Under the pieces are notes generated by a model. That model was not told the DNA's origin. It did no database searches and worked only from the letters and a program-made list of their open reading frames with translations. The translations under genes and the position numbers were made by a program. A stretch of DNA of 64,000 bases from the NCBI GenBank assembly GCA_024672315.1, contig GCA_024672315.1_4714.1. One strand, written 5' to 3'. Shown in pieces: positions 18,107-37,289 of this stretch. How positions within the stretch are numbered: position 1 is the stretch's first letter; each line of letters begins with the position of its first letter. The stretch comes from a phage.

Positions 18107-18122
18107 GGTTTTTCCCGATCGT

Positions 18123-18356: not shown

Positions 18357-18490
18357 ATTTTAGAAACATCACTAATGCGAATGCGAGTAATAACGCACGT
18401 ACCCACATACCTCCTTGATAACTGTTGTACAACATAAAGACCAGAGCGATGCCGCCCATATGCAGGCGGCACTTATCGAACAGTGTTGGT

Positions 18491-18718
18491 TTATACATAA
18501 GTGATTAAACGTTGAATGATTTTTACTTTGCCTTTACCTGGACCTTTCTTGCGGCGATTCAACAGACGGATACGGGTTCGAGTTACAACGTCGCCGTCAT
18601 AATCAGCCTGGAACTGTGATAAAAAAGCAGGCTGTATCGGATCGACACCAGGATTGCTATAGAAAGGATTGAGACCTAAAAGAGGGTTAACTGGAATCAT
18701 CGCATTGTCCTTACTCAA
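18491..18718 (-). CDS. small basic protein with KKGPGKGK motif (75 aa)
   Basis: C-terminus RIRLLNRRKKGPGKGKVKII; paralogous motif in ORFs at 34968-35533. Confidence 0.45.
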   Translation of the reverse strand: MSKDNAMIPVNPLLGLNPFYSNPGVDPIQPAFLSQFQADYDGDVVTRTRIRLLNRRKKGPGKGKVKIIQRLITYV

Positions 18719-19069
18719 TTATTTACCCAGATAGAGGTATTCACCACCCTGAACAACACCGGTTGCTGGATCAACAAGTATACGAACCCGTGCGTAGGTC
18801 TTGAAAGAGGGGTTGAAAACTTCGAAGTCTGCCACTTTCAATTTCACGCTGGGGTTGGTAGGGTTCTTAACTCCGGGAAGTTCTTTCGGGGTACCGAAAT
18901 CAACACCACATTCTTCAAGGTCTGCTGGCGTCATGCTCTCCATGGCCATGTAGATTGCTTTTGCTTTATCGTAAACCTCTGGGCTATCCAGCAATCCAGC
19001 CTGTGCTGAACCGACAACACTACCGAACAGAATAGCAACAGCAACAAACAATTTAGTTAACGTTTTCAT
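18719..19069 (-). CDS. secreted protein (116 aa)
   Basis: Signal peptide MKTLTKLFVAVAILFGSVVGSAQA. Confidence 0.55.
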   Translation of the reverse strand: MKTLTKLFVAVAILFGSVVGSAQAGLLDSPEVYDKAKAIYMAMESMTPADLEECGVDFGTPKELPGVKNPTNPSVKLKVADFEVFNPSFKTYARVRILVDPATGVVQGGEYLYLGK

Positions 19070-19105
19070 GATATTTTCCTCGAAAGTAAAATGTTACAAT
19101 ACCTA

Positions 19106-19528
19106 TTAACGTACGGCCGCTACGCTGTTAGCGCATGCCTGAATATCATCGGTATTTACGATGATGGTTTCGTTAAACGCACGAATACGCGCACGACGTG
19201 CTTCTTTAAGGCTGGCGATTGCGCTAGTAGCTTGATCTGTATTCGCAAGGCTAATAACCGGGATCAAACGCATGTCAGGACTGCAGATATTCAATGCTTG
19301 GTATACACGTCCATTGATTCCTACGGTATCAGACATCGGATAGTGCGCACGGCATTGAAATTGACCCATGACAACAAGCGAACGATCGGAGATACCAATC
19401 TGATAACGACCGTCTTCGCTGTAGGCGTAACAGTTATTCCCACGAGCCATCCAGTTAGCCTGTGCTTGCGTGCTAACAAAAGCCAGAGTGGTGACGATAG
19501 CGAATACGATATTTTTGAACAGTTTCAT
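19106..19528 (-). CDS. secreted protein (~140 aa)
   Basis: Start reassigned to ATG at 19528 (MKLFKNIVFAIVTTLAFVSTQAQA signal peptide) with GAGGA RBS; track start 19573 lies in hairpin. Confidence 0.55.
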   Translation of the reverse strand: MKLFKNIVFAIVTTLAFVSTQAQANWMARGNNCYAYSEDGRYQIGISDRSLVVMGQFQCRAHYPMSDTVGINGRVYQALNICSPDMRLIPVISLANTDQATSAIASLKEARRARIRAFNETIIVNTDDIQACANSVAAVR

Positions 19529-19562
19529 GATAAAGATCCTCGTTGAAATAAAATCGGTATAA

Positions 19563-19585
19563 AGGCCCCCCATTTAGGGGGACCT
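19563..19585 (-). terminator. hairpin
   Basis: agg(c)ccccc-attta-ggggg(a)cct; followed on minus strand by CTTTATACCG. Confidence 0.4.
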
Positions 19586-19587
19586 GA

Positions 19588-19905
19588 TTAGTTTGCGCGT
19601 AAGAAACGACCCAGAACCGTTACGATTGGAAACAGCCCTGTAACAGTATCATCGCCCGAAAACATCATCATTGTTCCGTTAACGGTGATGAAACGGATGT
19701 CTGTTGCGGACCCATCGATAGCGACAAAACGCATCGAGTTCGGTGGAAGGTCCTCAACCACTTCCACGAGATACTCGCGATTGTCAAAGGCTTCTTTAAC
19801 ACGACGCATGAAACGAATCAATGTTCCTTCCGCGTCGGCTTCCAAATGACCTAAGATATCGCGATTATTACGAATAGCAAATACAGCCATTTTAAACATA
19901 CACAT
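19588..19905 (-). CDS. hypothetical protein (105 aa)
   Basis: First ORF downstream of the 25-bp TATATTAC element. Confidence 0.45.
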   Translation of the reverse strand: MCMFKMAVFAIRNNRDILGHLEADAEGTLIRFMRRVKEAFDNREYLVEVVEDLPPNSMRFVAIDGSATDIRFITVNGTMMMFSGDDTVTGLFPIVTVLGRFLRAN

Positions 19906-19970
19906 CTTGACATCCTTTTATATCGGATTGATTGCTAATAATTCAAGGTGAAGCTGATTACTGCATTGCT

Positions 19971-19995
19971 TCACCTAAGTAATATAGCCGTGAAA
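19971..19995 (-). promoter_or_regulatory. candidate phage promoter element, copy 1 (minus-strand reading TTTCACGGCTATATTACTTAGGTGA)
   Basis: 25-bp match (24/25) to element at 47014-47038; both 40-90 nt upstream of leftward genes. Confidence 0.45.
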
Positions 19996-20013
19996 ATTAA
20001 TGTATTAACCTAT

Positions 20014-20970
20014 TCACGCTTTTGCTAAGTAGGGTTGGATCTCATTAATCCGTTTAACCACAACTTCAGGGAAAAGTTTGAGTATTTCATCAGGTGGTAT
20101 TGAACCTTCTGTCCAACGATAGCGTTCAACCATCTCGATGCGCGGACTCCCTCCGACGTCAGCGATACGAAAGATACAGGCGATGCCTAAATCGAAACAT
20201 ACGCTGTAAATATCTTCCGTACCTCCTTTATCAGCAAGTATTTTCGCAAAATGCTCGTTATCGGGAAGAATGGCTAAATTACGGATACACCAAACATTAT
20301 TCCCCATTTCTTCAAGTTTTGGGTAGGTTAAAGTGTGCCCGTATTGCGTTAACCATCGATGATTTTCGAGGTAGAAGTCCTTATCCCCTGGCCGATAACC
20401 CAGTATCACTCCCGTGTAGAAGAAATTGGGCATATCAAGCAGTTCTTGCACTGTCGGGCCGGTATGCTCCCAAAGACAGATTTGTTTACGGTCTATATCG
20501 TAATCTGTGACGTTACTCACCTCCCAACTTATCGTAAGTTCATCGGCAACGTGCCAACCTAAAGCGTGTTCGCCGCCAAGCAGATTAACAATGGTTGACA
20601 CTTCATACTTGTCAAATACGCCTAAATTACGCGGTGGTTGCATCGTACGTAATGGCTCCCACAACACACTGTAATCATAGAGCAAATGGCGACATAAACT
20701 TTTTGTTAGGGGCGTCTGTTCAGTGAACAGGGGAAGAATCACCGTATCCAATAACGGGCGTAACGGATGATCGTTCGGTGGTAACGGGGTAGCCAGCCGA
20801 CCTCCTTCTTTGGGGTAATCGAGACCAAACCCGTAACGCTCCGAAATGAGTGCAATCAGCACTTTTGCTACGCGGTTACGTAGTATGCGATGGATATCAT
20901 CACTGTAACTGAATTTCGGTTTATTACCGCAAACGAAGGTGAAGTATCTGGGCGTTAGCACAGCCATCAT
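20014..20970 (-). CDS. hypothetical protein (318 aa)
   Basis: ORF. Confidence 0.5.
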   Translation of the reverse strand: MMAVLTPRYFTFVCGNKPKFSYSDDIHRILRNRVAKVLIALISERYGFGLDYPKEGGRLATPLPPNDHPLRPLLDTVILPLFTEQTPLTKSLCRHLLYDYSVLWEPLRTMQPPRNLGVFDKYEVSTIVNLLGGEHALGWHVADELTISWEVSNVTDYDIDRKQICLWEHTGPTVQELLDMPNFFYTGVILGYRPGDKDFYLENHRWLTQYGHTLTYPKLEEMGNNVWCIRNLAILPDNEHFAKILADKGGTEDIYSVCFDLGIACIFRIADVGGSPRIEMVERYRWTEGSIPPDEILKLFPEVVVKRINEIQPYLAKA

Positions 20971-20977
20971 CTTTCCC

Positions 20978-21424
20978 TCAATCTAAATAGTACGTGATGG
21001 ATAGGTCTTTTCCATCGAATACAATATCCGTGCAGTCGTGAATGGTCGGTAATACCATTTTTGCTGCTATTGGGACGTATGCCTGCAGTTCCATGAAGTT
21101 ATTCATGCGGAACGCACGACGTACCATCAGCGGTGTTAGCGTAAACGTTACGCTGACGTTACCGCTTGGAAGCAGGTGCATTATCGCATGTCCGTGATCG
21201 CACCAGCAATGGTTTTCGATCCATCCGGTGTAAATCAGAATGTCTTTATCTTCGTCGTAATAAGCAATGCCGGTCTGCTTTAGATGACTAGTGAATCGAG
21301 AGGCTTGCTCGTAGCCTGCACGCAACATTCGAGCAACCAGTCGAGTATTGTTAGCGATTCGATTCTGTTCGTTGGTTTTTGTGGTTTTGAAAATTTCGAT
21401 ACGTTCTGCTTTTGTAATTTGCAT
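20978..21424 (-). CDS. hypothetical protein (148 aa)
   Basis: ORF. Confidence 0.5.
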   Translation of the reverse strand: MQITKAERIEIFKTTKTNEQNRIANNTRLVARMLRAGYEQASRFTSHLKQTGIAYYDEDKDILIYTGWIENHCWCDHGHAIMHLLPSGNVSVTFTLTPLMVRRAFRMNNFMELQAYVPIAAKMVLPTIHDCTDIVFDGKDLSITYYLD

Positions 21425-21502
21425 GATTACTGTCCTTTTGAAATATGTTTAGATAAGGAGGATTTACCCGGTATTAAAAGTTATTTGGTGTATGTAATGT
21501 TT

Positions 21503-22102
21503 TTACTTAGGTTCCAGTATTGGTCCGAACAACCAGAATGTCAGACGCTGGTAAACCTGTTCGATGACTGCAGCTTCTGTTTGCTCTTCTAGTGCTTTCC
21601 CTTTCTTATGTTGTATTTCTGGCGGGATGTCGCCGTTGTAAACATACCCTGTTGAGAAGTCCCACGCCAACCGTTTACCGAAAGTGGGTAAGAACACCTC
21701 TTCGAATCGGAACGCTTTCGAATTCCAATGAAGCAGCTGATCGGATTCAACATGTAAGGCTTTATTACGTTTGCTTGGCGTGTTTCCGAAGTACTGAACG
21801 ATAGCTGATTTCATAACCCGATCGGCGAAGTCTTTGGCTTCGGCCTCATCGAGGGGAGGCAGACGATGTGATAGATTCAGCTTGCGTTGTTCAACATCAA
21901 TCTTACGCATCGCTTTAATCAAATCACCAGGAACGATTTTACCCTTATGGCCTTCCTGTCGGTGTACGAAACACCCCTGGAATAGCACGCAAAGTTCTTG
22001 AGGTGCGCTACTTTCCATTCGCCCATAAGCAACAATCACCGATCGACGACGATCAATAACTTCGCGGATAAACCGCGGCTCAGTAATACTCACCACTGTC
22101 AT
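21503..22102 (-). CDS. hypothetical protein (199 aa)
   Basis: ORF. Confidence 0.5.
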   Translation of the reverse strand: MTVVSITEPRFIREVIDRRRSVIVAYGRMESSAPQELCVLFQGCFVHRQEGHKGKIVPGDLIKAMRKIDVEQRKLNLSHRLPPLDEAEAKDFADRVMKSAIVQYFGNTPSKRNKALHVESDQLLHWNSKAFRFEEVFLPTFGKRLAWDFSTGYVYNGDIPPEIQHKKGKALEEQTEAAVIEQVYQRLTFWLFGPILEPK

Positions 22103-22146
22103 TTAAAGCCCTCTTTATCTTTTTCCATTTCTCTTTACATAACCAC

Positions 22147-22851
22147 TTAAGACGTTGCCATCTTACCTTCCAGAGACTTCTTCGGTAAACCATGGATAAC
22201 TCCTTCCGGGGTTAAGAACACACAGTCTGGATTCTGCGTTCGTGAACGGTCGTCTGGACTGTTCAACGAAAACAGCAATGCAGAAATACCTTTTGTCCGA
22301 TTTAACGTTGCGACGATCACATCAAGCTGCCGTAGCGCATCCGATACTGTTCGATGTGGAACGATTCGCGACTGTTTGAAGCTGGCTAACCGCCAAGTCT
22401 CGAACAAACAACGCAGTTTAAACACGTCGGACGGAATAGCTGTAGATCCCTGTTCGATAACCTCAACCCGATCCGCTTCAGGATAACCTACAGCAACCGC
22501 ACTAAAGTGTTTTACCCCATTATGAAAATCATCGATAGACGCTTCAGCGTATTTACATACCGTGCCAGAAACGACCATCACTTTTGCTAAACCGCGATAA
22601 TTGATCGTTAACGGAATACGAAATACGCGTAAAGCATGTTCCGGATTTAATGAGACGTCATTCACTTTCGCAGATACCAGCGCACCTCGTTCATATCGAG
22701 CTTTGAACGGCAGCCCATTATAAACGGGATTGATCACAACGCCCCCTGGGGAGGCGTTAGCGTTAAGATGGGTGTTAAGCCAATCGGATACTTCCTGTCT
22801 GCTGGTTACGATTAACATAAAACGGTCCTCCATTTCTTTTCCTTCATTCAT
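22147..22851 (-). CDS. hypothetical protein (~234 aa)
   Basis: Track ORF 22147-22872; start trimmed to internal Met, uncertain. Confidence 0.45.
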   Translation of the reverse strand: MNEGKEMEDRFMLIVTSRQEVSDWLNTHLNANASPGGVVINPVYNGLPFKARYERGALVSAKVNDVSLNPEHALRVFRIPLTINYRGLAKVMVVSGTVCKYAEASIDDFHNGVKHFSAVAVGYPEADRVEVIEQGSTAIPSDVFKLRCLFETWRLASFKQSRIVPHRTVSDALRQLDVIVATLNRTKGISALLFSLNSPDDRSRTQNPDCVFLTPEGVIHGLPKKSLEGKMATS

Positions 22852-23494
22852 GGCGCATATCTTCCAAATCATCCTTTTGTTTTGTAAATTCTGATTGCTT
22901 GCGATAAACCTCCCATGAGTCGTATATACCGTAAAAGTTCAAATGGCGTGCATTTAAGTTCACAGTAAATTCTTCCACAGAGGCAAAATCCGAACGAAGC
23001 ATCGAATGGAAGGTGTCATCTCCAGTGCAGCCTCCGTATCCTTCACCCTGATAGACCAAAAGCTGGTGAGGTTGGATACGTGCGGCAACCAATGCAGCTT
23101 GTGGTTCGTCGTAAGGTGGCCATGACAGTAGAATAACGTCGTACTGTGAAAGATCGATGTTTGTGTAGTCGGCTTGCTGAATGTCCTCGATAAACGGGTG
23201 GGGATGTAATTCCGTATCGTAAGCGGTAATATCCTCAACACCGAGTTTACGTAACACGTAAGTCAGGTAACCTGTCCCACAACCCAGGTCAGCGACGCGT
23301 CGCCCGTAACAGATGCTCGCTAACTGGAGCGCGGTATCCATGGTTAACAATGACCACCCGATGCGCTGGGTATATTCTTCACGCACGATCCATTGTTGAT
23401 GGTGCGTCATTGGTTCTAAGATAGCAGCAAGCTGCTGGTACGGCAACGGCATTTTGGTTTCGCCTTGCGTGACTAATGCAATAACGTCGTTCAT
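22844..23494 (-). CDS. SAM-dependent methyltransferase (216 aa)
   Basis: Motif I VADLGCGTGYLTYVL; AAGGAAAC RBS upstream. Confidence 0.6.
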   Translation of the reverse strand: MNDVIALVTQGETKMPLPYQQLAAILEPMTHHQQWIVREEYTQRIGWSLLTMDTALQLASICYGRRVADLGCGTGYLTYVLRKLGVEDITAYDTELHPHPFIEDIQQADYTNIDLSQYDVILLSWPPYDEPQAALVAARIQPHQLLVYQGEGYGGCTGDDTFHSMLRSDFASVEEFTVNLNARHLNFYGIYDSWEVYRKQSEFTKQKDDLEDMRHE

Positions 23495-23519
23495 TTTGTT
23501 TCCTTTTTATCGGCATAAG

Positions 23520-23538
23520 CCCTCCCATGCCGGGAGGG
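23520..23538 (-). terminator. hairpin CCCTCCC/GGGAGGG
   Basis: ccctccc-atgcc-gggaggg; followed on minus strand by CTTATGCCG about 20 nt before methyltransferase ATG. Confidence 0.5.
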
Positions 23539-23636
23539 TACAATTATTCATTTATGTGGGTAAAGGTGTGGATCGGCAGCCGTTGAGGCGATAACGCAAT
23601 AGAACGGCCGTTCATTAATAACTACTGTTTTGATGC

Positions 23637-24143
23637 TCATGCTAAAATTCCCTCATTACCTAACAGTCGATTACGATGACGTCGGTACATTTGACAAAGT
23701 GTTGTGATTTGATAATGTTTGTTGTAGCGTACCTCGATACGTTTTTGCACCTCTTTCCATGGAAGTTTATCGTATTGTCGATAACGATGGATTTCATTTA
23801 ACATACGAAGACGAGTAGGATCGGTGTTCTTTATCGTCGTGAGCTTCACGCGTTGATATCCACGCTGTAGTCCCGATTCGGAATACGTGACATCAAACTC
23901 ATCCTGAATGATGGTGATGATCTCCCGCCACCGACGGTTCTCGCCATCACGTAAATGGACAACCCGCGATAAGATATCGTTCCGATTACGATGACTCAGT
24001 TTGATGTTAAGCATTGAAGCAATCGCGCTAATTGCTCTCTGACTCCGTCCTAACGCTTCACCGATTTCTTTCGATGTCATGACGCCCGCGTTTCGGCGTA
24101 TGAATGCGATTTCGGTTGTTGTGTATTCTTTACCTACTGCCAT
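23637..24143 (-). CDS. Myb/SANT-like HTH repeat protein, paralog A (168 aa)
   Basis: Repeated units of type TSKEIGEALGRSQRAISAIASML; C-terminal QxY/RW-type ending shared with paralogs. Confidence 0.5.
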   Translation of the reverse strand: MAVGKEYTTTEIAFIRRNAGVMTSKEIGEALGRSQRAISAIASMLNIKLSHRNRNDILSRVVHLRDGENRRWREIITIIQDEFDVTYSESGLQRGYQRVKLTTIKNTDPTRLRMLNEIHRYRQYDKLPWKEVQKRIEVRYNKHYQITTLCQMYRRHRNRLLGNEGILA

Positions 24144-24607
24144 TTCTTACCACGTGTGTTATAATAGTAACGCTGACAAAGATGTGTGTGACGATACTCC
24201 CGTTTGAACTCGACGCTGATAATGCGAGCAACTTCTCTCCAGTTAACCCCTTCACGTCGAAGTGCTGTAATACGGTCTGAAATTCTGCACCATTCATCCG
24301 GGTCGTATCGTCGTAGCTTGAGTCGTCGTATTACGGAGGCGACGCTCGCTCTCGATCGGCCAAGATGATTTGACAGCTGTTTGACCGAGTATCTGTGGAT
24401 ATTGTCGCGAATATAGGAAATCTCGTTGTCCGTATATGCCTCATTGGTTCTCGACGAAGGGAACAGCATATACAGCTTATTCTTAATCGCGCTTTCTGTG
24501 CGTTGAAATACAGCAGCCAGCTCACTAACCGGTGGTCTGGGTATCCGGTCCGCGTAATCCTCGAGGCGTGAGAGTTCCTCATCTGTCCAGCGATGGTACT
24601 TGCGCAT
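24134..24607 (-). CDS. Myb/SANT-like HTH repeat protein, paralog B (~158 aa)
   Basis: Start reassigned to ATG 24607 (MRKYHRWTDEELSRL) with AAGGAG RBS; W-x-EEL...RTESAIKNKL repeat. Confidence 0.5.
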   Translation of the reverse strand: MRKYHRWTDEELSRLEDYADRIPRPPVSELAAVFQRTESAIKNKLYMLFPSSRTNEAYTDNEISYIRDNIHRYSVKQLSNHLGRSRASVASVIRRLKLRRYDPDEWCRISDRITALRREGVNWREVARIISVEFKREYRHTHLCQRYYYNTRGKKWQ

Positions 24608-25082
24608 GGGCAACTCCTTTGTTTTTCGTGTAGTAACACCAACGTTGATACAACGCATGTTTATTCGTTGTAATCCCAAATTTAACAACAACGTCGTAGG
24701 TAATAACATCCCAATTTTGGGTGACGTTAAGTCGTTCCGCGATAAACGCGATAATCGCTTCCCGTTCTTGCTTGGTTAGCGCACGACGAATTCCATTAAG
24801 CCGTATAAACTGACGAACCGAGTCATACGAACGGTTTAAATCGTACGCAATCTCCCGCAGCGATTTTTGTCTGATTACCGACTTGATGTACGCACGTTCT
24901 TCTTCCGTATACGGCCGATGCTTTTGACGTTGACGTATTCCTAAGCGTCCCAGACGCGCGTCGACGCTGGCGCGTGTTCGTCCTGTCCGTTGCGCGATTT
25001 CATCAATCGTCATCGACGTGTTCAAATACAGATGCGTAACATCTTTCAGCTCGTCGTCACGCCACGGTTGAGATCGTCCCAT
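24579..25082 (-). CDS. Myb/SANT-like HTH repeat protein, paralog C (167 aa)
   Basis: PWRDDELKDVTHLY...IDEIAQRTGRTRASVDARL and second repeat YTEEERAYIKSV...LREIAYDLNRSYDSVRQ. Confidence 0.5.
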   Translation of the reverse strand: MGRSQPWRDDELKDVTHLYLNTSMTIDEIAQRTGRTRASVDARLGRLGIRQRQKHRPYTEEERAYIKSVIRQKSLREIAYDLNRSYDSVRQFIRLNGIRRALTKQEREAIIAFIAERLNVTQNWDVITYDVVVKFGITTNKHALYQRWCYYTKNKGVAHAQVPSLDR

Positions 25083-25560
25083 CTTGTATCCCTCTTTTCT
25101 TTCTATGATGCCACCAACGCTGATAGACAGCCTGCTTCGTACGTGTTATACCGAAATGCGCATTAACCCGTTCAGCAATGTGGTGCCAATCCTGCGTTTC
25201 TTCCAACAATGTATCAACGAAGGCTATGAAGATCTTAGTATCAGCCTCGCTTAACCGCTTGAAACCATGACGATGTGCTATCGTTCTGATACTGTTTGGA
25301 TCCCTGTTTAAATCGCGCGCGAGCTGTTTATAACTTTTGTGTTTGCAGTGCACTCTGATGTATTCCAACTCATCGACACTGAAACGTTTATGCGGTTTAC
25401 GACGTTCAACATTTAAGTATATCAACCTCGATTTAATTGCACCGTACGTTGTTTCCATGATTTCTGCGATTTCACGGATTTTTAATTTCGGGTGACGATA
25501 GTACAATTCCAGCAACTGTTCATCATCCTTACGATTCCATCGTCGTACTGGAGGTTTCAC
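25057..25560 (-). CDS. Myb/SANT-like HTH repeat protein, paralog D (167 aa)
   Basis: RRWNRKDDEQLLELYY...IREIAEIMETTYGAIKSRL; GTG start with AGGAGA RBS. Confidence 0.5.
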   Translation of the reverse strand: MKPPVRRWNRKDDEQLLELYYRHPKLKIREIAEIMETTYGAIKSRLIYLNVERRKPHKRFSVDELEYIRVHCKHKSYKQLARDLNRDPNSIRTIAHRHGFKRLSEADTKIFIAFVDTLLEETQDWHHIAERVNAHFGITRTKQAVYQRWWHHRKKRGIQDGTISTVA

Positions 25561-25573
25561 AACGAGATTTCTC

Positions 25574-26041: not shown

Positions 26042-26053
26042 AGTGCCACCCCA

Positions 26054-28789
<2,736 letters not shown>

Positions 28790-28824
28790 GATGGGAGGGA
28801 CACAGGCAATACGCTTTTATTTCG

Positions 28825-29457
28825 TCACGACTTCACGACGCATTCGACTTCGTCGTTCATATAAGCTTCGTATAACGACAGCACTTCCTTCATTTTAATT
28901 TCAGGTAACGCGACGGAACGAATCGCTTTCAGGATATTCCGTGTTTGATGGTGTTTAACCTTCGCTTCACGGGATTTACAGAATTGACGGATACAGGTAT
29001 TAACCTTACCCCCTTCAGCACGTTCGAGGGCGACATGCAGTTTCAGGTCAAGTAATACTTCTGTGAGTTCCTGGGTGGCAGGATCGTTACGAATAAGCCG
29101 CACCGTCCGTTCATCTGGATTCAGCATCTCGAGGAACTGAAGCTTGATCTGTTCAGGTACGGGTTTCGTGTTCATCATGATGGCATCAAGCTGTTCCTTA
29201 ACACCCGGCTCATTAAACACGTAACGTTCGATGCTTACGACGTGTTCTTTTCCTGACTCGCCATAAACCGCCATCGCACGATAGTCATCAAACAGCACGG
29301 CATACAACAAATCCTGTTCCGGTCCGATGGTACCATCGATGAGCTTCGGCGCGTGCTTCTTCAGGAAGCCATAGCGAACAGCTTCATCCGGCATGAGCGT
29401 CCACGCATTAACGGGTTGCTTTACGAGTTCCATGTAACACCTCATCAAGATTATCAC
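28825..29457 (-). CDS. hypothetical protein (up to 210 aa; start uncertain)
   Basis: ORF; overlaps upstream ORF at track start. Confidence 0.45.
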   Translation of the reverse strand: MIILMRCYMELVKQPVNAWTLMPDEAVRYGFLKKHAPKLIDGTIGPEQDLLYAVLFDDYRAMAVYGESGKEHVVSIERYVFNEPGVKEQLDAIMMNTKPVPEQIKLQFLEMLNPDERTVRLIRNDPATQELTEVLLDLKLHVALERAEGGKVNTCIRQFCKSREAKVKHHQTRNILKAIRSVALPEIKMKEVLSLYEAYMNDEVECVVKS

Positions 29458-29728
29458 TTACACCTGGCGGTACCACGATACCGGTACGAATCACGGCAGC
29501 AACTTCCTGCATGCCTTTACCCTTCAACGCATAGGTTTCATGTACCGTATTACGTCGCGTCGTTAACCCAACAAATTTACATACAACCATGTTGTTTTCT
29601 GAAAGGTAAGCGGTGTCGAGTTCACCATGCAACAATTCTTTCTCTTTGGTATCAATACCCAATAACGCAATTTGATAAGCTGAAAGTTTCCAATAGCGCA
29701 TGTTATCACCCAAACTGTTAAGAAGCAT
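29408..29728 (-). CDS. hypothetical protein (106 aa)
   Basis: ORF. Confidence 0.4.
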   Translation of the reverse strand: MLLNSLGDNMRYWKLSAYQIALLGIDTKEKELLHGELDTAYLSENNMVVCKFVGLTTRRNTVHETYALKGKGMQEVAAVIRTGIVVPPGVSDNLDEVLHGTRKATR

Positions 29729-30134
29729 CCTGTTTAATGTTGATGAGTATTTCCGTTCGAACCGAATTAGTCAGCACAGCACGCATACGTTCAAGCATCA
29801 TCGGGTTATCCGTAACCACCACATCGGCGTAACACAACGGATGGCTTTCGAATGCTTCGGTGTCACTTACTAACAGAACACCCATCACATTTACGTATTG
29901 CGGTATGCGTCCACGGATGCGTTGCCACATGTCTTGAGTAAGGTCTTCGTTTTCTAATGCGACCACGATAACAGGGCTGATATTTACCGGGAAACGCGGA
30001 TGCACCGTGCGGCGAAAGGTTACCCAGCTTTCGACGTGGGATAATGCAAGTTCGAGAGAACAGCACTTTGGAGAAATCTGTATGTTTATTTGCTGAATCA
30101 ATGAAAGGGGGTTTTGTACAGTCGCTTCAGCCAT
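29718..30134 (-). CDS. hypothetical protein (138 aa)
   Basis: ORF. Confidence 0.45.
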   Translation of the reverse strand: MAEATVQNPLSLIQQINIQISPKCCSLELALSHVESWVTFRRTVHPRFPVNISPVIVVALENEDLTQDMWQRIRGRIPQYVNVMGVLLVSDTEAFESHPLCYADVVVTDNPMMLERMRAVLTNSVRTEILINIKQDAS

Positions 30135-31112
30135 TTACTTTTTCCTGAAAATTAATGTCGGTAAGCCGTTTCTTACAGCATAATACAACACTAAGAGGTT
30201 AATCTTGCCAGCGGATACCGTAAGCATTTTACGACGACGTGGTAAACTAACCGGTACGGTAGATGCCATCGTTGCGCTGTTCTTGAACGTTTGGGAATAA
30301 CGTCGCAGCGACGCTTCACCTAACAATGGAAGGAACAGATCCTCGGTAAGAATATCATCGCAGATATACGTAATCGCAAGTAACGGCGGATTCCATTCGT
30401 TCAGGAACTCGAAAATCTCGTTTGCGATACCCATCGCGTTATTGGGAAGCGGAACCTCACGAACGTATTTCTGATTGCCTTTATCCAACAGGATTCTTGA
30501 CATACAGTAGTCGTGGATTATACCCGCAACGTCATCCGCTGTTTCTGCGTTCTGCATCAACGCTCGTGCTTCTTCCCAGGTCAGTTGACGTTTTGTTTCG
30601 TAGTAGGTTGGTTTCAAAACCGCGTAAAAATCGTGGATTAAGCGACCAACATCCCCACGGGTTTTCTCCGCCAACGCGATCGCGTACGCTTTCTTCTCCG
30701 CATCCGTTAAGATCTGATTACGCCACAGCTCGTATTCGTCTAACAGCTCGGTGTATTTGGCTGTCCATTCAGAGGAAAGATAATAACCAATACTGTCAAT
30801 CAATGCGTGCGTTAAAACACCCAGACGCTCGCGTCTTGGATCGACCGACGGCTCATAGACAAAAGGTAGCTTCGGTTTTTCAAAGCCGCTGGCTACGACG
30901 GTATCTGAAAAAGCGTTAGCGAAAACACCCATCGGTTTCCATGACGTAAGGAGATCCTGATACAGCATTGGATGAACGTTATTAATCGCTGTGAGTTTAT
31001 CATCGAAAAGACTCACGCTTGGATGTTCGGCATTCGCAAGCTCAAAATAAATTCTTTCGAGCAACGCCTTTACCGCATCGCGTGTCTTATCGATTGGGCC
31101 AACAGAAGCCAT
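30135..31112 (-). CDS. hypothetical protein (325 aa)
   Basis: ORF. Confidence 0.5.
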   Translation of the reverse strand: MASVGPIDKTRDAVKALLERIYFELANAEHPSVSLFDDKLTAINNVHPMLYQDLLTSWKPMGVFANAFSDTVVASGFEKPKLPFVYEPSVDPRRERLGVLTHALIDSIGYYLSSEWTAKYTELLDEYELWRNQILTDAEKKAYAIALAEKTRGDVGRLIHDFYAVLKPTYYETKRQLTWEEARALMQNAETADDVAGIIHDYCMSRILLDKGNQKYVREVPLPNNAMGIANEIFEFLNEWNPPLLAITYICDDILTEDLFLPLLGEASLRRYSQTFKNSATMASTVPVSLPRRRKMLTVSAGKINLLVLYYAVRNGLPTLIFRKK

Positions 31113-31126
31113 GTAAATTATCCTCG

Positions 31127-31393
31127 TTAAAAAGTACCCATGATCGATAGGGCAATATGGTCTTTATTCGCACGCGCTTGTAACGACATATCAAGACCGC
31201 TTTTCTTAATATGCCAACGTGCCACCAGTTCCGGTTGGTCAACGGAATACAGCCCTTCTCGATGTTGATTCAACCATTTAGCAATTGGATGCAATTTATC
31301 AGGATCGACCACACCCAATTCCAACCCACCGGGTGTTAATGGTTTAGAATAAAAGTCAAGTGCGTTCCGTAAAAAGTCATCCTCGATGCTCAT
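31127..31393 (-). CDS. hypothetical protein (88 aa)
   Basis: ORF; start overlaps stop of small upstream ORF (ATGA). Confidence 0.45.
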   Translation of the reverse strand: MSIEDDFLRNALDFYSKPLTPGGLELGVVDPDKLHPIAKWLNQHREGLYSVDQPELVARWHIKKSGLDMSLQARANKDHIALSIMGTF

Positions 31394-31506
31394 CGTAGCA
31401 TACCTACCATGCCAATTACGGCAAACAGTACGCCGACGGCGCTATACGCAAGCAGCGCTTTAGCAACCCAAGATTTTATTTCCGTAAGCTCGTCATTATT
31501 CACCAT
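31390..31506 (-). CDS. small single-TM protein (38 aa), not in ORF track
   Basis: ATG at 31506 with GAGGTG RBS; MVNNDELTEIKSWVAKALLAYSAVGVLFAVIGMVGMLR; stop overlaps next start. Confidence 0.4.
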   Translation of the reverse strand: MVNNDELTEIKSWVAKALLAYSAVGVLFAVIGMVGMLR

Positions 31507-31558
31507 GTTTCACCTCGTTCGGTTATTGTCTGATCTCATACCTTTACCTAAGCGTATC

Positions 31559-31577
31559 CCCCGTCATTAAGACGGGG
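31559..31577 (-). terminator. hairpin
   Basis: ccccgtc-attaa-gacgggg just downstream of stop at 31584. Confidence 0.45.
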
Positions 31578-31583
31578 TGCTTA

Positions 31584-31958
31584 TCACCAGAGACGATTAC
31601 CTTCCTCATCCCACCAAGCAATCGCTTGTGTCGACTCGAATGCATTAGGGCGTAACGTCATGCCCTTGTGGTCAACGATTAACCGCAACTCAGTACCGAA
31701 CCACTCAATCGAGATAAACAAACCCTTCCGAATGATTGCTTGATAACCTGATAGCCGGTCAAAGAGTCGTTGAAAGATTTCATCATGCTCACACGACACT
31801 AATGCTTCTGAATAGCGTCGCATCGATTTTGCATCGCTAGGTAAGCGTGTTTTACAGTCCCACCATAACACAGCGTACATCAATGCGGCATTACGCAATC
31901 GTAACGATTGAACTGGCGTTAGCTGCCGTCCTTCAACATCATCGATAATAACGTACAT
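31584..31958 (-). CDS. hypothetical protein (124 aa)
   Basis: ORF. Confidence 0.5.
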   Translation of the reverse strand: MYVIIDDVEGRQLTPVQSLRLRNAALMYAVLWWDCKTRLPSDAKSMRRYSEALVSCEHDEIFQRLFDRLSGYQAIIRKGLFISIEWFGTELRLIVDHKGMTLRPNAFESTQAIAWWDEEGNRLW

Positions 31959-32191
31959 TGCGTCTTATTCCGCGTTTGTTTCCTTAACATGGACACATTC
32001 CGCATCGATAGTCACACCGGTAGAACGACTGGTCTCGTGGGTAGAATCAAATCCGCTGTTGAACAACATGGCGAACGTGTTATTATCCATACGAGCAAAG
32101 GTCTCCGCAATACGATCGGGATGAAAATCGGTGCGGTTGATGGTCGATTTCACAAAAACTCCTATAAACGATTTAATTATTGGTATTAAGA

Positions 32192-32677
32192 TTAAAGCAG
32201 GATCTGCGGACAGCAGCATGATTCGTAACCACCTTCATGGGGTAACGTATTGCTGGTGTCAGGCCAAACGAGCTGAATACCTGCAACTTTTTTACCATAT
32301 CGAGCGAAAGCCGCTATCGCATACACTTCGTTGAAGGATTCAATATCCTCGATTTCGCGCACGTCAAGACGCAAGGTTTCACCCGTACCTTTCAAAGTCA
32401 GATTGCCATCGAACGCGCCTAACGGGATGGTCTTTGCCTTCACCATGAAGTTACCCAGTTTGTTGATTGCTGAACCAAGGGCAGGGCAGTAACCGGATAC
32501 GAAGATTTCCGGCATTCCGTGTTCGGTTAGACCAACAGTATACATATAGCCAGGCTCGTCGCTTCCCTCATCAGGAGCGACACTGATAATAGCCCATTGC
32601 TTTTTCTCGATATATTCTTCGATAAAATCGTCCATTTTTGAAAAATTGTTTTCATTAAGTTTAACTGTGTTACTCAT
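32192..32677 (-). CDS. hypothetical protein (161 aa)
   Basis: ORF; segment GYMYTVGLTEHGMPEIFVSG loosely resembles a DUF4262-type domain (unverified recollection). Confidence 0.45.
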   Translation of the reverse strand: MSNTVKLNENNFSKMDDFIEEYIEKKQWAIISVAPDEGSDEPGYMYTVGLTEHGMPEIFVSGYCPALGSAINKLGNFMVKAKTIPLGAFDGNLTLKGTGETLRLDVREIEDIESFNEVYAIAAFARYGKKVAGIQLVWPDTSNTLPHEGGYESCCCPQILL

Positions 32678-32963
32678 GTTCTTTATCCTTTAAAGCGTTT
32701 TCTAACCAGCGGACATAACTTTCACGATAAAGGTGAATATGTCTTTTACCGTCGCGAAAGTTAGGGTCAATAAGATGAATCGCAGCATGGGTTGAAGTCA
32801 TCGCATGCTGTAAATGTTTTCGTGTTAATCGTCCAAGTTTTACCCAGCGTTGAATATACCGCGCGTCTGCCGCTAAACAGGTACGTTCGTCGATGAAAGG
32901 TACCAATACCTGAACGATACTACCGTAATACACCATCGAGCTGTTGAACATCTGCGTCTCCAT
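32670..32963 (-). CDS. hypothetical protein (97 aa)
   Basis: ORF. Confidence 0.45.
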   Translation of the reverse strand: METQMFNSSMVYYGSIVQVLVPFIDERTCLAADARYIQRWVKLGRLTRKHLQHAMTSTHAAIHLIDPNFRDGKRHIHLYRESYVRWLENALKDKEHE

Positions 32964-32981
32964 GCAAATGGATGGGGCGGA

Positions 32982-33290
32982 TTAGTGAAGAATTACCGTT
33001 TGCGACCCTTTCTCATACTCGGTAAGTAACTCGTCATATCGACGATCGACCGCCTTGATTGCATTATCGATCTCTGTCGTGTCTGATACAACAGATCGTT
33101 TCGCTTCCAGTCGATATACTAACGCATCACGCATACCCTCGGCAGCAGCGAGTTCACAGGTTGCTTGATGTTTATTATCCGAAAAGACGAAGAATGGTTT
33201 GTTCTCTTCATCAGCCAAGAAGTAGTCACGAATCGCAACCAACCTTTCTTCTGGAACCAGTTCACAATTGTTTTCGTTCATTCTCATCAT
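32982..33290 (-). CDS. hypothetical protein (102 aa)
   Basis: ORF. Confidence 0.45.
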   Translation of the reverse strand: MMRMNENNCELVPEERLVAIRDYFLADEENKPFFVFSDNKHQATCELAAAEGMRDALVYRLEAKRSVVSDTTEIDNAIKAVDRRYDELLTEYEKGSQTVILH

Positions 33291-33295
33291 CTCTC

Positions 33296-33628
33296 TTAAA
33301 GTTTTAACGTATTGACGCCGCTTATAAAGGCGTTGATTTCATTGTCGATGTTACCGGTTTGCTCGATAATCTTCTCCACCATCAATCTTGGTTTGTTATA
33401 AGCAATGCTTACAGCATCGGGACCATTTCCATACATGCTCGCGACGTAAATTCGAAGTTCTTTTAAACGATCAAGTAACAACTGCGCGATTTCCAGAACT
33501 TCTTCTGTGGCGGTCTGTGTGTTGCATTCGCGTAACTTGTGCTCTAACAGCGAAGTCGCAGCATCGAGCATGGATGTGTATTTACGATAGTTATAAATAT
33601 CAATTATAGCTGTCTGATTCATATACAC
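33296..33628 (-). CDS. hypothetical protein (110 aa)
   Basis: ORF. Confidence 0.45.
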   Translation of the reverse strand: MYMNQTAIIDIYNYRKYTSMLDAATSLLEHKLRECNTQTATEEVLEIAQLLLDRLKELRIYVASMYGNGPDAVSIAYNKPRLMVEKIIEQTGNIDNEINAFISGVNTLKL

Positions 33629-33633
33629 GTTGT

Positions 33634-34002
33634 TTATTTATCGGGGTCTGGAAAATAGTAAAATCGCCAATGTAACATAGAAATCGCATTTCTTATTCGA
33701 TTCGCACGAACACAGCGTCCGAGAAAGGACTTGTAGCAAGAATCGCGATCCATAAACAACTCGTGGCTCGATTTCATCAGAACCACGATGTCTCTTATAT
33801 ACGAATTGCAGTACTCGATAAACGGATCTGTATCGTACGTATATTTCCTCGCACTACCTATCCCCAACTCCCTATTTAACTCACGACAATTTATCATGAG
33901 CTTCACATAACGGATAAGCCGAACGAAGTCACGTAAATTACGATTAAACCAATATCGATACCAAAATGACTGTATACCCCAACCAGTTCTATTTAACTTC
34001 AT
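33634..34002 (-). CDS. hypothetical protein (122 aa)
   Basis: ORF. Confidence 0.45.
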   Translation of the reverse strand: MKLNRTGWGIQSFWYRYWFNRNLRDFVRLIRYVKLMINCRELNRELGIGSARKYTYDTDPFIEYCNSYIRDIVVLMKSSHELFMDRDSCYKSFLGRCVRANRIRNAISMLHWRFYYFPDPDK

Positions 34003-34633
34003 TGATACCTTCTATTAGTTGTACAGCAACTTCTTTTTCGGTGCTATAAAAGAACTTGCGGTGGAACTGAACAAGAAGCTTTTCGAATTTACATTGAACG
34101 ATCTTTTTGCGTTCAATATGGCCTAGGGAGAGCAAAGCACCCATACAGCGTACCGCTTGTTCGAGAACCTGTTTCGCGGTATCGTGATCGTCCGGTAACG
34201 GTAAATCTTCCTCATCATCTTTAGCGATAAGACGTCTAATGATGTTATCGATACGTATCTCATCACCGTTAATAAAAGCCCCCTTCTCCCATTCATCAAA
34301 TCGTTGATGGATTCGACGTTGTAAATTGGCCCTGTCTTCCATTAACTCTTTTAACTGGCTTTCTAAGTGGGATATGGTACGGCGGTCGGTATCAGTAAAG
34401 TTTTCCGATTCTTTGTACCACCAATCATTACGCGCTTGTAAGTCATTGATGCGAGAAATCGTCCGACGACACTCGTTAACAAACACATCACCGTTCGATA
34501 GCTCTGTACCGAAATAGCATTTGTATTTATAACGCATGACACGGATTAAACGTTTCGCTAGAAAACCTTGTTTCTCTAGTTTCTTCTTCAGTTGGGTGTA
34601 TTTCTCTTCTTTTGTTTCCGCGATATCTTTCAT
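33989..34633 (-). CDS. hypothetical protein (214 aa)
   Basis: ORF. Confidence 0.45.
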   Translation of the reverse strand: MKDIAETKEEKYTQLKKKLEKQGFLAKRLIRVMRYKYKCYFGTELSNGDVFVNECRRTISRINDLQARNDWWYKESENFTDTDRRTISHLESQLKELMEDRANLQRRIHQRFDEWEKGAFINGDEIRIDNIIRRLIAKDDEEDLPLPDDHDTAKQVLEQAVRCMGALLSLGHIERKKIVQCKFEKLLVQFHRKFFYSTEKEVAVQLIEGINEVK

Positions 34634-34980
34634 GCCATATTCTCCGTTATATGCTTTAAACTGTTACGTACACTTTTCAATCGATGGTTAAATCCGGAAC
34701 GATAACATTTCCGTACAACCCATGGCGCTCGCGCTTTATTCGCCTGATGAAGCTGTTCATTGACCTGCGACGCTATACGTAAACGCTCTAATAAAGACCT
34801 CAACCGAACGACAACCAACGGCTGTTCTTTCACCTTCTCTAGTTTGAGTAAAGAGTCAATATGAAACTTTATTTCGATAATCTGATTCCTGTTTTTGCGG
34901 TACTGATGAATATACCAGCATCGACGAAAATAAGTGATGCTAAGCATAGGGTAGATCCTCTTCAACGCTATCTCCAACAA
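34630..34980 (-). CDS. hypothetical protein (116 aa)
   Basis: ORF. Confidence 0.45.
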   Translation of the reverse strand: MLEIALKRIYPMLSITYFRRCWYIHQYRKNRNQIIEIKFHIDSLLKLEKVKEQPLVVVRLRSLLERLRIASQVNEQLHQANKARAPWVVRKCYRSGFNHRLKSVRNSLKHITENMA

Positions 34981-35165
34981 TACATCGGATTAGGTGCTTT
35001 ATGGCATTTATAAATACCTACTTTCTTCTGTCTGCCTTTACCTGGGCCTCGTTTAATACGTTTGTTATAAACACGATCCAAATATCGAGTGGCGATAAAT
35101 CGGGATGAATACATCGGGTCGATATATTCTAGCGTACCTGCTTCTGTCACTTCGAGACATTGCAT
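34968..35165 (-). CDS. small basic protein with KRGPGKGR motif (65 aa)
   Basis: YNKRIKRGPGKGRQKKVGIY; paralogous motif with 18491-18718 and two neighbours. Confidence 0.45.
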   Translation of the reverse strand: MQCLEVTEAGTLEYIDPMYSSRFIATRYLDRVYNKRIKRGPGKGRQKKVGIYKCHKAPNPMYCWR

Positions 35166-35190
35166 GCGTAACCTCTCTTTCCTCTAAAAG

Positions 35191-35394
35191 TCAGTCCAAC
35201 ATAAGCCACGGCATCGCTTTCGCGATAGAATCCACCGCAGCATTTGCGATCCTTCGTTCAGTCGTTGGTACCACATGCGCCACGAACCGTTTTCCTTTAT
35301 TGCAACCTTTCTTGTGTTTTCCTTTGACCAAACGAACGCCAATCATGTCGTTGATAACATGATTTAGTATATGGCGCTGTAGAGAATTAATCAT
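35191..35394 (-). CDS. small basic protein with KGKHKKGCNKGK motif (~67 aa)
   Basis: IGVRLVKGKHKKGCNKGKRF; ATG at 35394. Confidence 0.45.
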   Translation of the reverse strand: MINSLQRHILNHVINDMIGVRLVKGKHKKGCNKGKRFVAHVVPTTERRIANAAVDSIAKAMPWLMLD

Positions 35395-35533
35395 CACTTT
35401 TACTCCAGGCAGAGAAGATTCTCGGTTTTAGTTCTATCTGTCCGTATATCCAGGTGTATCTCCATTTACCTTTACGAGGACCTTTCTTATTTTTAACACC
35501 TATCAGAATACGATAGGGGTATGACCAGGCCAT
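35387..35533 (-). CDS. small basic protein with KNKKGPRKGK motif (48 aa), not in ORF track
   Basis: ATG at 35533 with AGGAG RBS; MAWSYPYRILIGVKNKKGPRKGKWRY...; stop overlaps next start. Confidence 0.4.
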   Translation of the reverse strand: MAWSYPYRILIGVKNKKGPRKGKWRYTWIYGQIELKPRIFSAWSKSDD

Positions 35534-37124: not shown

Positions 37125-37257
37125 CGTTTTTCACCTCGTCGTAAAAGTAAATAGAGTTTTGTCGAGACGCCCTAATTACTTACAACGTCGGTTCTCCCGG
37201 CTTCAGAGAATTCTTAAAATCCGTTAGTTTTGATAGATAGGGTAAGACGGCATAAAA

Positions 37258-37276: not shown

Positions 37277-37289
37277 TCTATTAATCAGC

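Follow-up and report, generated by a model that had tools for sequence, protein, structure and literature searches.

Four short genes with a common Lys/Gly-rich motif

The window analysed here, 64 kb of phage DNA, comes from a ~95% relative of Goslar, a nucleus-forming jumbo phage. On its minus strand, the window sequence contains four short ORFs with a Lys/Gly-rich core, as the initial annotation had described, and we refer to them as A, B, C, and D (Table 1). They correspond to Goslar gp102 (A), gp137 (B), gp138 (C), and gp139 (D), every one of which is annotated as a hypothetical protein. The predicted products measure 48–69 aa (5.8–7.8 kDa), with a pI of 9.8–10.7 and a net charge of +7 to +9, and no signal peptide or transmembrane segment was found in any of them.

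Table 1. Coordinates of the four motif genes and of the GluRS-like segment in the 64-kb window
Feature	Position	Strand	Motif codons (pattern search)	Remarks
Paralog A (Goslar_00102)	18491..18700	-	18527-18550	69 aa, pI 10.4
Paralog B (Goslar_00137)	34968..35165	-	35031-35054	65 aa, pI 9.8; motif KRGPGKGR; own GAGG site
Paralog C (Goslar_00138)	35191..35394	-	35290-35313	67 aa, pI 10.7; start ATG overlaps D stop
Paralog D (Goslar_00139)	35387..35533	-	35465-35488	48 aa, pI 10.2; aromatic-rich (WSYPYRILIGVKNKKGPRKGKWRYTWIYGQ...); AGGAG site
GluRS-like segment of C (residues 31-67)	35194..35304	-		gap-free alignment to E. coli GluRS residues 30/31-67

Two gene models required revision. A had been started at a TTG codon (18718, 75 aa); the ATG at 18700 is the most likely start, with AAGGA located 7 nt upstream and orthologues beginning with MIP.... 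D was recognized initially but was missing from the underlying ORF list; it is annotated in Goslar, and gene calls on metagenome contigs include it as well.

D, C, and B belong to a long transcription unit that runs leftward behind the thymidylate synthase gene (thyA) and are presumably co-transcribed; their order behind thyA is fixed across four divergent contigs. The trio is contiguous, as first described, while the translational coupling attributed to all three genes holds for D and C, the sole overlapping pair (8 nt, ATGATTAA). Since B is separated from the C stop codon by a 25-nt gap and has a ribosome-binding site of its own, strict translational coupling is confined to D and C. A sits apart from the trio, among genes for membrane and secreted proteins, with gp103 and gp104, both signal-peptide proteins, on one side and a series of small membrane proteins on the other; a SleB-like cell-wall hydrolase is encoded approximately 1.7 kb away. 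A conserved 56-aa ORF, unannotated and with a transmembrane-like segment, begins in overlap with the A stop codon. All of the conserved neighbors are orphans.

Motif statistics and coding constraint

A search of the window in all six frames gave exactly four matches to [KR][KR]G..[KR]G[KR], one in each of the four ORFs, and the stricter pattern [KR][KR]G[PC].[KR]G[KR] likewise yields exactly four occurrences. Across 100 simulated windows (second-order Markov), the loose pattern appeared 0.04 times on average and the strict one 0.0 times; with four observed against at most 0.04 expected, a compositional artefact, which the initial annotation had named as one outcome that would undo its proposal, is ruled out. 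A 33-column HMM of the core, searched against all six frames, recovered only the four ORFs (E = 3e-19 to 8e-15), the next match having E = 3.6. The motif was found in 101 of 107 family sequences. In C it reads KKGCNKGK, some relatives having Tyr or Val in place of the Cys. The motif is encoded by purine-rich DNA that is similar among the copies (AAGAAAGGTCC..GTAAAGG), and its codons vary synonymously while the encoded amino acids stay constant; the motif is under protein-level constraint.

Each gene is preceded by a Shine-Dalgarno site, and all of the contigs examined, as well as >100 sequence clusters, keep the reading frames intact, B alone being represented by >55 orthologue clusters. The dN/dS values are mostly 0.2–0.4 (0.16–0.62 for B, 0.04–0.40 for C, and 0.09–0.6 for D), and the core of A has a pN/pS of about 0.15–0.3. 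The C-terminus of C (...AKAMPWLMLD) is invariant. Judged by these signatures of coding sequence, the four ORFs are genuine genes, which would be translated and serve as accessory genes specific to the lineage of Goslar-like nucleus-forming jumbo phages. That they are instead chance ORFs, decaying remnants, or a DNA-level repeat translating to a Lys/Gly string has a very low probability and is already disfavored: the ORFs are indeed very short and orphan, and the copies of the purine-rich motif DNA resemble each other, but dN/dS well under 1, synonymous variation around invariant residues, intact frames, good ribosome-binding sites, and the lack of other gltX fragments nearby (see below) argue against it.

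Distribution and relationship of the four proteins

The profile search seeded with the four sequences, which had been proposed as a check, returned only orthologues of A, B, C, and D from Goslar-like phages. In its word-indexed form many of the matches lay on contigs of ~235–249 kb, and an exhaustive hmmsearch of 1.84 billion protein representatives gave eight clusters, each of the A, B, C, or D type, with no fifth paralog. With B and C as tblastn queries against 50,697 phage records, Goslar was the sole match. The family is thus confined to Goslar-like jumbo phages of enterobacteria and has exactly four members. The four genes are not mentioned in the literature and supplements searched, and none of the four proteins is found among the rows listed from the Goslar virion mass-spectrometry table.

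The designation "paralog family" applies to a shared module and not to whole proteins. Profile–profile comparison between the subfamilies (hhalign) detected similarity over 11–20 columns centered on the motif (E = 4e-5 to 0.07), and none for B versus C. The conserved module of ~20 residues is read as an amphipathic segment, an exposed K-K/R-G-(P/C)-x-K-G-K/R loop, and a hydrophobic beta-strand; outside it, the four proteins differ, and their N-termini are evolutionarily labile. In A, a variable Pro/Asn-rich N-terminus precedes a conserved C-terminal module, ADYDGD-x6-IRLLNRRKKGPGKGKVKIIQRLI(T/S)YV; across relatives, the 5' half of the gene is divergent and the 3' half conserved, and three N-terminal forms occur (63/69, 96, and 47 aa). 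D is N-terminally extended to 93–96 aa in some relatives.

An AlphaFold2 model of C (pLDDT 68) comprises a helix (residues 2–18), two strands (21–26 and 36–41) joined by a loop (27–35), and a second helix (44–60), with the motif in the loop between the strands, where the prediction is most confident (pLDDT 77–80). The model of B is poor (pLDDT 52), containing only a helix at residues 17–35, and here a helix, not a strand, precedes the motif. A motif hairpin is predicted, with moderate confidence, for C only.

The initial annotation did not recognize the family, and neither do Pfam, PHROGs, NCBIfam, or PDB for any of the four; fold searches also gave no match. The proteins fit no described family. 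Short basic sequences of this type draw spurious weak matches, such as ICMT and RecR_C for B and SWIRM for A. SWIRM (PF04433) was rejected: the A profile reached E = 0.24 against the LSD1 SWIRM domain (hhalign 56%), the Pfam SWIRM model matched 0 of 13 A members, and the value fell to 0.8% against a profile of SMARCC1, SMARCC2, RSC8, and LSD1.

A GluRS-like segment in paralog C

Over its final 37 residues, C can be aligned gap-free to residues 30–67 of glutamyl-tRNA synthetase (GluRS), with no offset relative to Met1 of the enterobacterial enzyme, the two sharing the pattern GG-x-F-V-x-R...T-x-x-x-R...A-I-x-x-I...M-x-W-L-x-L-D/E. In an hmmsearch against PDB with C, the only matches were two GluRS structures (E = 0.047 and 0.22), a match of borderline significance at the database level that was followed up post hoc. 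Pairwise comparison with E. coli GluRS gave P = 1.2e-4 by hhalign and E = 1e-4 by BLASTP, with 2 of 20,000 shuffles. Against a GluRS profile, hhalign returned 92.4% (P = 5e-7; reversed control 0.1%), and against single GluRS sequences 80% (E. coli), 69% (Thermus), and 39% (Bacillus), all in one register and with reversed controls of 0.1%. BLASTP paired residues 32–67 of C with residues 32–67 of GluRS; zero offset from Met1 is one diagonal of about 470, which provides independent support for a GluRS ancestry of C. C is the best GluRS match within the window, which holds no further gltX-like segments. Pfam and NCBIfam sequence-versus-profile scans reported the GluRS family for 0 of 13 C orthologues.

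The matched part of GluRS is strand beta2 and helix alphaB of the N-terminal Rossmann fold, and the predicted strand 36–41 and helix 44–60 of C presumably coincide with these two elements. The Lys/Gly loop would then occupy the alphaA–beta2 connection (ARNHGG in E. coli GluRS). Unlike GluRS (gltX; a class I aminoacyl-tRNA synthetase, Pfam tRNA-synt_1c) with its 471 residues, C has 67 and ends without full catalytic and anticodon-binding domains. The HIGH motif (H[ILVM]G[HGNT]) occurs in none of the 107 family sequences, C having ...VINDMIG... at the corresponding place; KMSKS is absent; and the catalytic RIEDTD of GluRS is replaced by HVVPTT. With such a sequence C cannot be an enzyme, and its resemblance to the beta2–alphaB segment reads as homology by descent, not as membership of the enzyme family. 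We consider it probable that C derives from codons 1–67 of a gltX gene, as an exapted 5' fragment whose catalytic motifs have been lost. A, B, and D show no similarity to GluRS, so that a common origin of all four is a conjecture; A, B, and D may trace back to a C-like gene that was duplicated in tandem and truncated.

Possible functions

Our best guess, which we put forward tentatively, is that the four proteins bind a polyanion or nucleic acid through the basic loop. Four to five invariant Lys/Arg residues on a flexible Gly/Pro scaffold, flanked by aromatic or hydrophobic residues, could form a contact surface for polyanions, and nucleic-acid binding by the four proteins, as proposed initially, is a reasonable reading of this layout. 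RNA or DNA would be the likeliest ligand, that is, phage DNA, mRNA, or tRNA, the last being a candidate because of the GluRS ancestry of C. The differing flanks may direct each paralog to a separate partner or location.

A rather unlikely alternative is that the loop is directed at proteins, the four acting as host-takeover or anti-defense factors that bind acidic surfaces of host or phage proteins, with C mimicking the N-terminus of GluRS, acting as a decoy for it, or interfering with the tRNA(Glu)/GluRS pathway. Small, lineage-specific, fast-diversifying tandem paralogs among orphan genes are typical of phage accessory and counter-defense loci, and the four genes resemble this pattern, with only orphans as conserved neighbors and labile N-termini, A and D each occurring in several versions. 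In its C-terminal half, moreover, C keeps its GluRS-like residues, including the invariant terminus, under purifying selection. However, none of the defense-related or other family libraries searched gave a match, the dN/dS range indicates ordinary purifying selection without the signature of an arms race, and the beta2–alphaB segment is buried within the Rossmann fold of GluRS, with no interaction known to us that uses this segment alone.

It is improbable, on balance, that the proteins, above all A, are cationic membrane-active peptides that act on the host envelope or the early phage vesicle in the manner of disruptin or beta-hairpin antimicrobial peptides. Disruptin (phiKT gp28) is a cationic phage lysis protein resembling antimicrobial peptides; like it, all four products are small and strongly cationic, and the surroundings of A, with signal-peptide proteins, small membrane proteins, the overlapping 56-aa ORF, and the nearby cell-wall hydrolase, would suit such a role. 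Unlike disruptin, they have no detected amphipathic helix and no sequence similarity to it, and three of the four genes (B, C, and D) belong to the thyA transcription unit, away from lysis genes. What is conserved is a Gly/Pro/Lys loop instead of an amphipathic face; the strands, as read from the sequence, are just partly amphipathic; no product carries an export or membrane-spanning segment; and the GluRS-like half of C suggests a soluble alpha/beta protein.

Equally doubtful as a whole is a more specific account, in which a 5' fragment of host gltX was captured and gave rise to the family, with the Lys/Gly loop grafted onto the beta–alpha unit and the product multiplied, and in which the family acts on tRNA, aminoacylation, or translation. 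The proteins might then, for example, shield or sequester tRNA from tRNA-targeting defenses or modulate host GluRS. Alternatively, they could act as phage-encoded nucleoid proteins, a small size or the basic loop as a tag letting them reach the DNA inside the phage nucleus, for which a linear import signal has not been found so far (PMC11087766).

Very improbable is a new type of AT-hook or histone-tail-like binder of the DNA minor groove, the analogy drawn by the initial annotation. Like AT-hooks and histone H4-type tails, the motif is short, basic, and rich in Lys, Gly, and Pro, and it could in principle make electrostatic contacts with DNA; Gly-Pro in a basic context recalls the R-G-R-P core by resemblance only. 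However, minor-groove binding by AT-hooks relies on Arg, and in this motif Lys predominates. A regular-expression search for the AT-hook (PF02178/SMART AT_hook) found neither GRP nor RGR in the four window proteins, and GRP was missing from 105 of the 107 family sequences; the exceptions are two B variants with an incidental Q-to-P change. In Pfam hmmscan, AT_hook matched no paralog even at E ≤ 10. The likeness to histone tails is compositional only, since the motif sits within the protein, flanked on both sides by conserved hydrophobic segments predicted to be structured, and is not a disordered terminal tail; the histone fold itself had no Pfam match.

Other DNA-binding folds were also rejected. 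HU/IHF was assessed by a Bac_DNA_binding profile match and the beta-arm signature R-x-G-R-N-P-x-T-G, and the beta3–alpha fold of MBD, AP2, and the lambda and Tn916 integrase N-terminal domains by sequence-profile or structural similarity; neither was found in the four proteins. The likeness of C to HU/IHF, MBD, AP2/GCC-box, and the Tn916 and lambda integrase arm proteins is conceptual, consisting in a basic loop that, in the predicted model, tips two strands beside a helix. By eye, MBD2 and C share a G-x3-G-K spacing.

Four small basic ORFs share a Lys/Gly motif

Both loci had a sole megablast match, the Escherichia phage vB_EcoM_Goslar (GenBank ID: MK327938/NC_048170), at 95–96% identity over the full query. 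Goslar, with a genome of 237 kb, is the E. coli model among nucleus-forming jumbo phages, and the majority of its genes are orphans. All four ORFs described in the initial annotation were found, each on the minus strand, and are referred to here as paralogs A, B, C, and D, with D-C-B forming "the trio".

Six-frame translation of the whole 64-kb window yielded four matches to the pattern [KR][KR]G..[KR]G[KR], confined to these ORFs, as compared to a mean of 0.04 for this loose pattern and 0.0 for a stricter form with [PC] in 100 second-order Markov simulations. A 33-column HMM spanning the motif with its flanks recovered the same four ORFs (E of 3e-19 to 8e-15; next E = 3.6) and no further family copies in the six frames of the window. 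Among family members, the motif codons swap synonymously (GGT/GGC/GGA/GGG, AAA/AAG, CCT/CCA, CGT/CGC, TGC/TGT) while the residues remain constant; the motif is therefore constrained as protein rather than as DNA. The pattern counts, simulations, and core HMM confirm the observation, and four matches against at most 0.04 expected, together with the synonymous changes, rule out a DNA-level repeat or a compositional artefact.

The four proteins have masses of 5.8–7.8 kDa, pI values of 9.8–10.7, and net charges of +7 to +9. The originally proposed size range of 48–75 aa needs a correction for paralog A, which most likely starts at the ATG at 18700 (69 aa), with AAGGA 7 nt upstream and orthologues beginning with MIP. 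Translational coupling, suggested for the entire trio, holds for D and C, since the D stop codon and the C ATG overlap (ATGATTAA), with an AGGAG site preceding D, but not in the same way for B, which begins 25 nt past the C stop and has its own GAGG site.

Features of the paralog A and trio loci (positions in the window)
Feature	Position	Strand	Goslar counterpart	Remarks
Envelope-type block containing A	~16700–19600	-	Goslar_00098 to _00104	
56-aa ORF (MYKPTLFDKCRLHMGGIALVFMLYNSYQGGMWVRALLLAFALVMFLKFESSLYQKK)	18328–18498	-		conserved, unannotated
GC-rich stem GCCGCC-N8-GGCGGC	~18451–18470	-		perfect
Paralog A	18491–18700	-	Goslar_00102	hypothetical protein
Signal-peptide protein, 116 aa	18719–19069	-	HOV27_gp103	
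Signal-peptide protein	19106–19573	-		155 aa (window listing); ~140 aa (Goslar-like contigs)
Small orphan	33634–34002	-		trio neighbour
Small orphan	34630–34947	-		trio neighbour
Paralog B	34968–35165	-	Goslar_00137	hypothetical protein
Paralog C	35191–35394	-	Goslar_00138	hypothetical protein
Paralog D	35387–35533	-	Goslar_00139	hypothetical protein
Small orphan	35564–35857	-		trio neighbour
Terminator annotated in Goslar	~37257–37277			
Terminator annotated in Goslar	~37891–37914			

Family extent, selection, and the shared module

A word-indexed profile search returned 100 sequence clusters, every one an A, B, C, or D orthologue. Exhaustive hmmsearch of 1.84 billion representative proteins gave eight clusters at E ≤ 1e-3, again all of A/B/C/D type, three of them new and divergent at the same syntenic position; this search found no fifth paralog in the lineage. 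Relatives of B and C were sought by tblastn in 50,697 phage records, where Goslar alone matched. These searches place the family in the Goslar-like lineage alone, with a membership of exactly four.

Many orthologues reside on contigs of ~235–249 kb representing Goslar-like phages (gut or environmental assemblies, with a few enterobacterial ones). Several members, in protein clusters P0074, P0079, P0080, and P0091, were deposited under the bacterial names E. coli, Enterobacter hormaechei, and Salmonella Newport, and their contigs reach ~240 kb. Bacterial isolate assemblies thus contain Goslar-like phage genomes, via a carrier state, pseudolysogeny, or contamination.

In four divergent contigs, thyA was invariably followed by one or two small ORFs, then by D, C, and B, and finally by a 105-aa ORF. 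Across their loci, Nei–Gojobori dN/dS was mostly 0.2–0.4 for B, C, and D, and the conserved core of A had a pN/pS of ~0.15–0.3. These ratios and the synonymous motif codons identify A–D, at the level of sequence comparison, as genuine protein-coding genes under purifying selection. The motif was present in 101 out of 107 family sequences; the exceptions were two truncated sequences and four B clusters in which Ser or Asp replaces the second Gly.

Profile-profile comparison of the subfamilies aligned just 11–20 motif-centred columns (A-B, E = 4e-5; A-D, 1.5e-4; B-D, 1.2e-3; C-D, 1.6e-3; A-C, 0.011; B-C, no alignment). The term "paralog family" consequently describes a motif module common to A–D, with similarity limited to these columns. 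As read from the alignments, the common part is a hydrophobic/amphipathic segment, the K-K/R-G-(P/C)-x-K-G-K/R element, and a hydrophobic strand, and not a whole domain.

N-terminal regions are labile: paralog A is found at lengths of 63/69, 96, and 47 aa, owing to replacement of the 5' half of the gene, and paralog D at 48 or 93–96 aa. The 96-aa A form (L009/L010:2501-2791, cluster P0091) repeats part of its pre-motif segment internally, …RERIRLLVDRKNSDNY… followed by …NSIRLLNRRKKGPGKGK…, the first copy lacking the Lys/Gly loop, which suggests an intragenic duplication of the module. The long D forms of some Goslar-like phages (93–96 aa; comparison loci L006:4001-4291 and L007:2088-2369) carry an acidic N-terminal extension that is followed, ahead of the motif, by a segment predicted to be helix-like (…AAKKAAQRIIERYKAIW…). 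D in the window and in Goslar has no such extension and starts 30 nt after the upstream gene.

Comparison with described families

As the initial annotation anticipated, the family is not a recognised one: Pfam, PHROGs, and NCBIfam had no match above threshold for A–D or their long forms, and the sub-threshold alignment of C with DUF7439 (E = 0.03–0.14 in three of 13 members) was far below the cut-off. A–D are a real and previously undescribed four-member family of mini-proteins, specific to this lineage.

A profile built from A alone matched the SWIRM domain of LSD1 (E = 0.24; hhalign, 56%; 0/20,000 shuffles reaching the score). The signal fell to 0.8% with a profile of real SMARCC1, SMARCC2, RSC8, and LSD1 sequences, and the 13 A members gave no match to the Pfam SWIRM model. 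We rejected SWIRM for A, and for B, where it had been noted by eye, as an LSD1-specific chance match. B members gave unrelated weak Pfam matches to ICMT and RecR_C (E of about 0.005), indicating that short basic sequences easily attract noise; an AF2 model of B was uninformative (pLDDT 52).

Paralog C resembles the N-terminus of glutamyl-tRNA synthetase

Searched against all PDB sequences, a profile of 13 C orthologues had two matches, both glutamyl-tRNA synthetases (GluRS; E = 0.047 and 0.22, borderline at the database level, with the follow-up being post hoc). The alignment was ungapped over 34–35 residues and reached the final residue of C. With E. coli MG1655 GluRS as the reference, hhalign gave 55% (P = 1.2e-4) and BLASTP a pairwise E of 1e-4, placing residues 32–67 on residues 32–67; of 20,000 shuffles, two attained the HMM score of the real sequence. 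A contig scan for diverse GluRS sequences returned only enterobacterial ones (at least 90% identity), and Bacillus and Thermus N-termini were therefore entered by hand and added to 66 real Enterobacterales sequences. This GluRS profile matched C at 92.4% (P = 5e-7; reversed controls, 0.1%). Single sequences scored 80% (E. coli), 69% (Thermus), and 39% (Bacillus); the two hand-entered sequences, Thermus and Bacillus, jointly gave 85.5% (P = 5.7e-6).

All C/GluRS alignments share one register, and in GlnRS and GluQRS the homologous strand or helix is where even the sub-threshold alignments fall. The zero offset from the initiator Met, which singles out one of ~470 diagonals, does not depend on the score. 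Unlike the SWIRM signal of A, the GluRS signal of C rose with family information, and C was the best GluRS match across the whole window. The curated Pfam and NCBIfam models made no GluRS call for C.

An origin of C in the first 67 codons of a gltX gene, followed by exaptation, is probable and is the unexpected element in this family. The Lys/Gly motif of C (residues 24–35) takes the position held in GluRS by the end of helix alphaA and the ARNHGG loop. The GluRS motifs HIGH and KMSKS are absent, RIEDTD is replaced by HVVPTT, and C is not an enzyme. A decayed full-length gltX or co-captured tRNA genes were excluded, as the window holds no other gltX pieces and no matches to tRNA genes or Rfam families. 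In comparison with the GluRS profile, A, B, and D gave no signal, and the idea that they descend from a C-like ancestor is therefore conjectural. If confirmed, C would show cleanly how a phage can make a new mini-protein from a piece of a host housekeeping enzyme, and could indicate an unrecognised link of these phages to tRNA or aminoacylation.

Genomic setting of the paralogs

The minus-strand trio is located downstream of thyA, and a scan from thyA to position 33000 found no minus-strand terminator-like site; co-transcription of the trio with thyA is therefore likely. Apart from thyA and a DUF4262 protein, the conserved neighbours are all orphans. Three of these (see table) are rich in Arg, Lys, and aromatic residues and had no Pfam or PHROG match, and all genes of the block downstream of thyA are uncharacterised and confined to Goslar-like phages.

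Paralog A is flanked by two signal-peptide proteins on one side and a run of small membrane proteins on the other, with a SleB-like cell-wall hydrolase (Hydrolase_2) ~1.7 kb away. The surrounding block of envelope-type proteins, in which the small membrane proteins measure 63 and 123 aa, could represent a lysis or envelope cassette. The 116-aa neighbour of A is listed in the Goslar virion mass-spectrometry table at an estimated 20–46 copies, and none of A–D is among the entries listed. The literature and supplements searched for expression and localisation do not mention the A–D genes or the motif.

Possible functions of the Lys/Gly loop

The conserved element combines four to five Lys/Arg residues, a Gly/Pro scaffold, and aromatic/hydrophobic flanks in proteins of net charge +7 to +9. 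In the most economical reading, which we hold tentatively, it would be the loop through which the proteins contact a polyanion, nucleic acid being the most likely one, and specificity would come from the divergent flanks of each paralog. A less likely alternative has A–D as takeover or anti-defence factors that act on proteins, with C in a role related to GluRS. Membrane-active cationic peptides, suggested mainly by the envelope-type neighbourhood of A, appear improbable. The AT-hook or histone-tail-like binding originally proposed is very improbable: the AT-hook reading fails because the defining G-R-P core is missing and no AT-hook profile matched, and HU/IHF was excluded in the same way. 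That the ORFs are non-functional is hardly credible beside the purifying selection on all four.

The family is conserved across the Goslar-like lineage, and its members are small enough for synthesis and have an obvious loop for mutation, so that four "hypothetical" genes lend themselves directly to tests of localisation and nucleic-acid binding and to knockdown by CRISPRi-ART, a method established for Goslar (PMC11087766). If they prove no more than basic accessory proteins of a generic kind, the finding would be ordinary.

A conserved ORF and GC-rich stem downstream of paralog A

The 56-aa ORF occupies the 176-nt "intergenic gap" between Goslar_00102 and _00101, and its ATG overlaps the A stop codon (tATGTAtaa). 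It is open in all five compared loci, with a pN/pS of ~0.3–0.6; none of the four nucleotide differences within the first 26 codons alters a residue, and further on hydrophobic residues are exchanged conservatively, as would fit a transmembrane-like segment. This pattern points to a probable missed gene for a small membrane protein, translationally coupled to A. Within this ORF, directly downstream of A, the GC-rich stem is kept in 5/5 loci with one loop substitution and no T-run after it, and may represent an RNA processing or stability element or a terminator for a phage RNAP.
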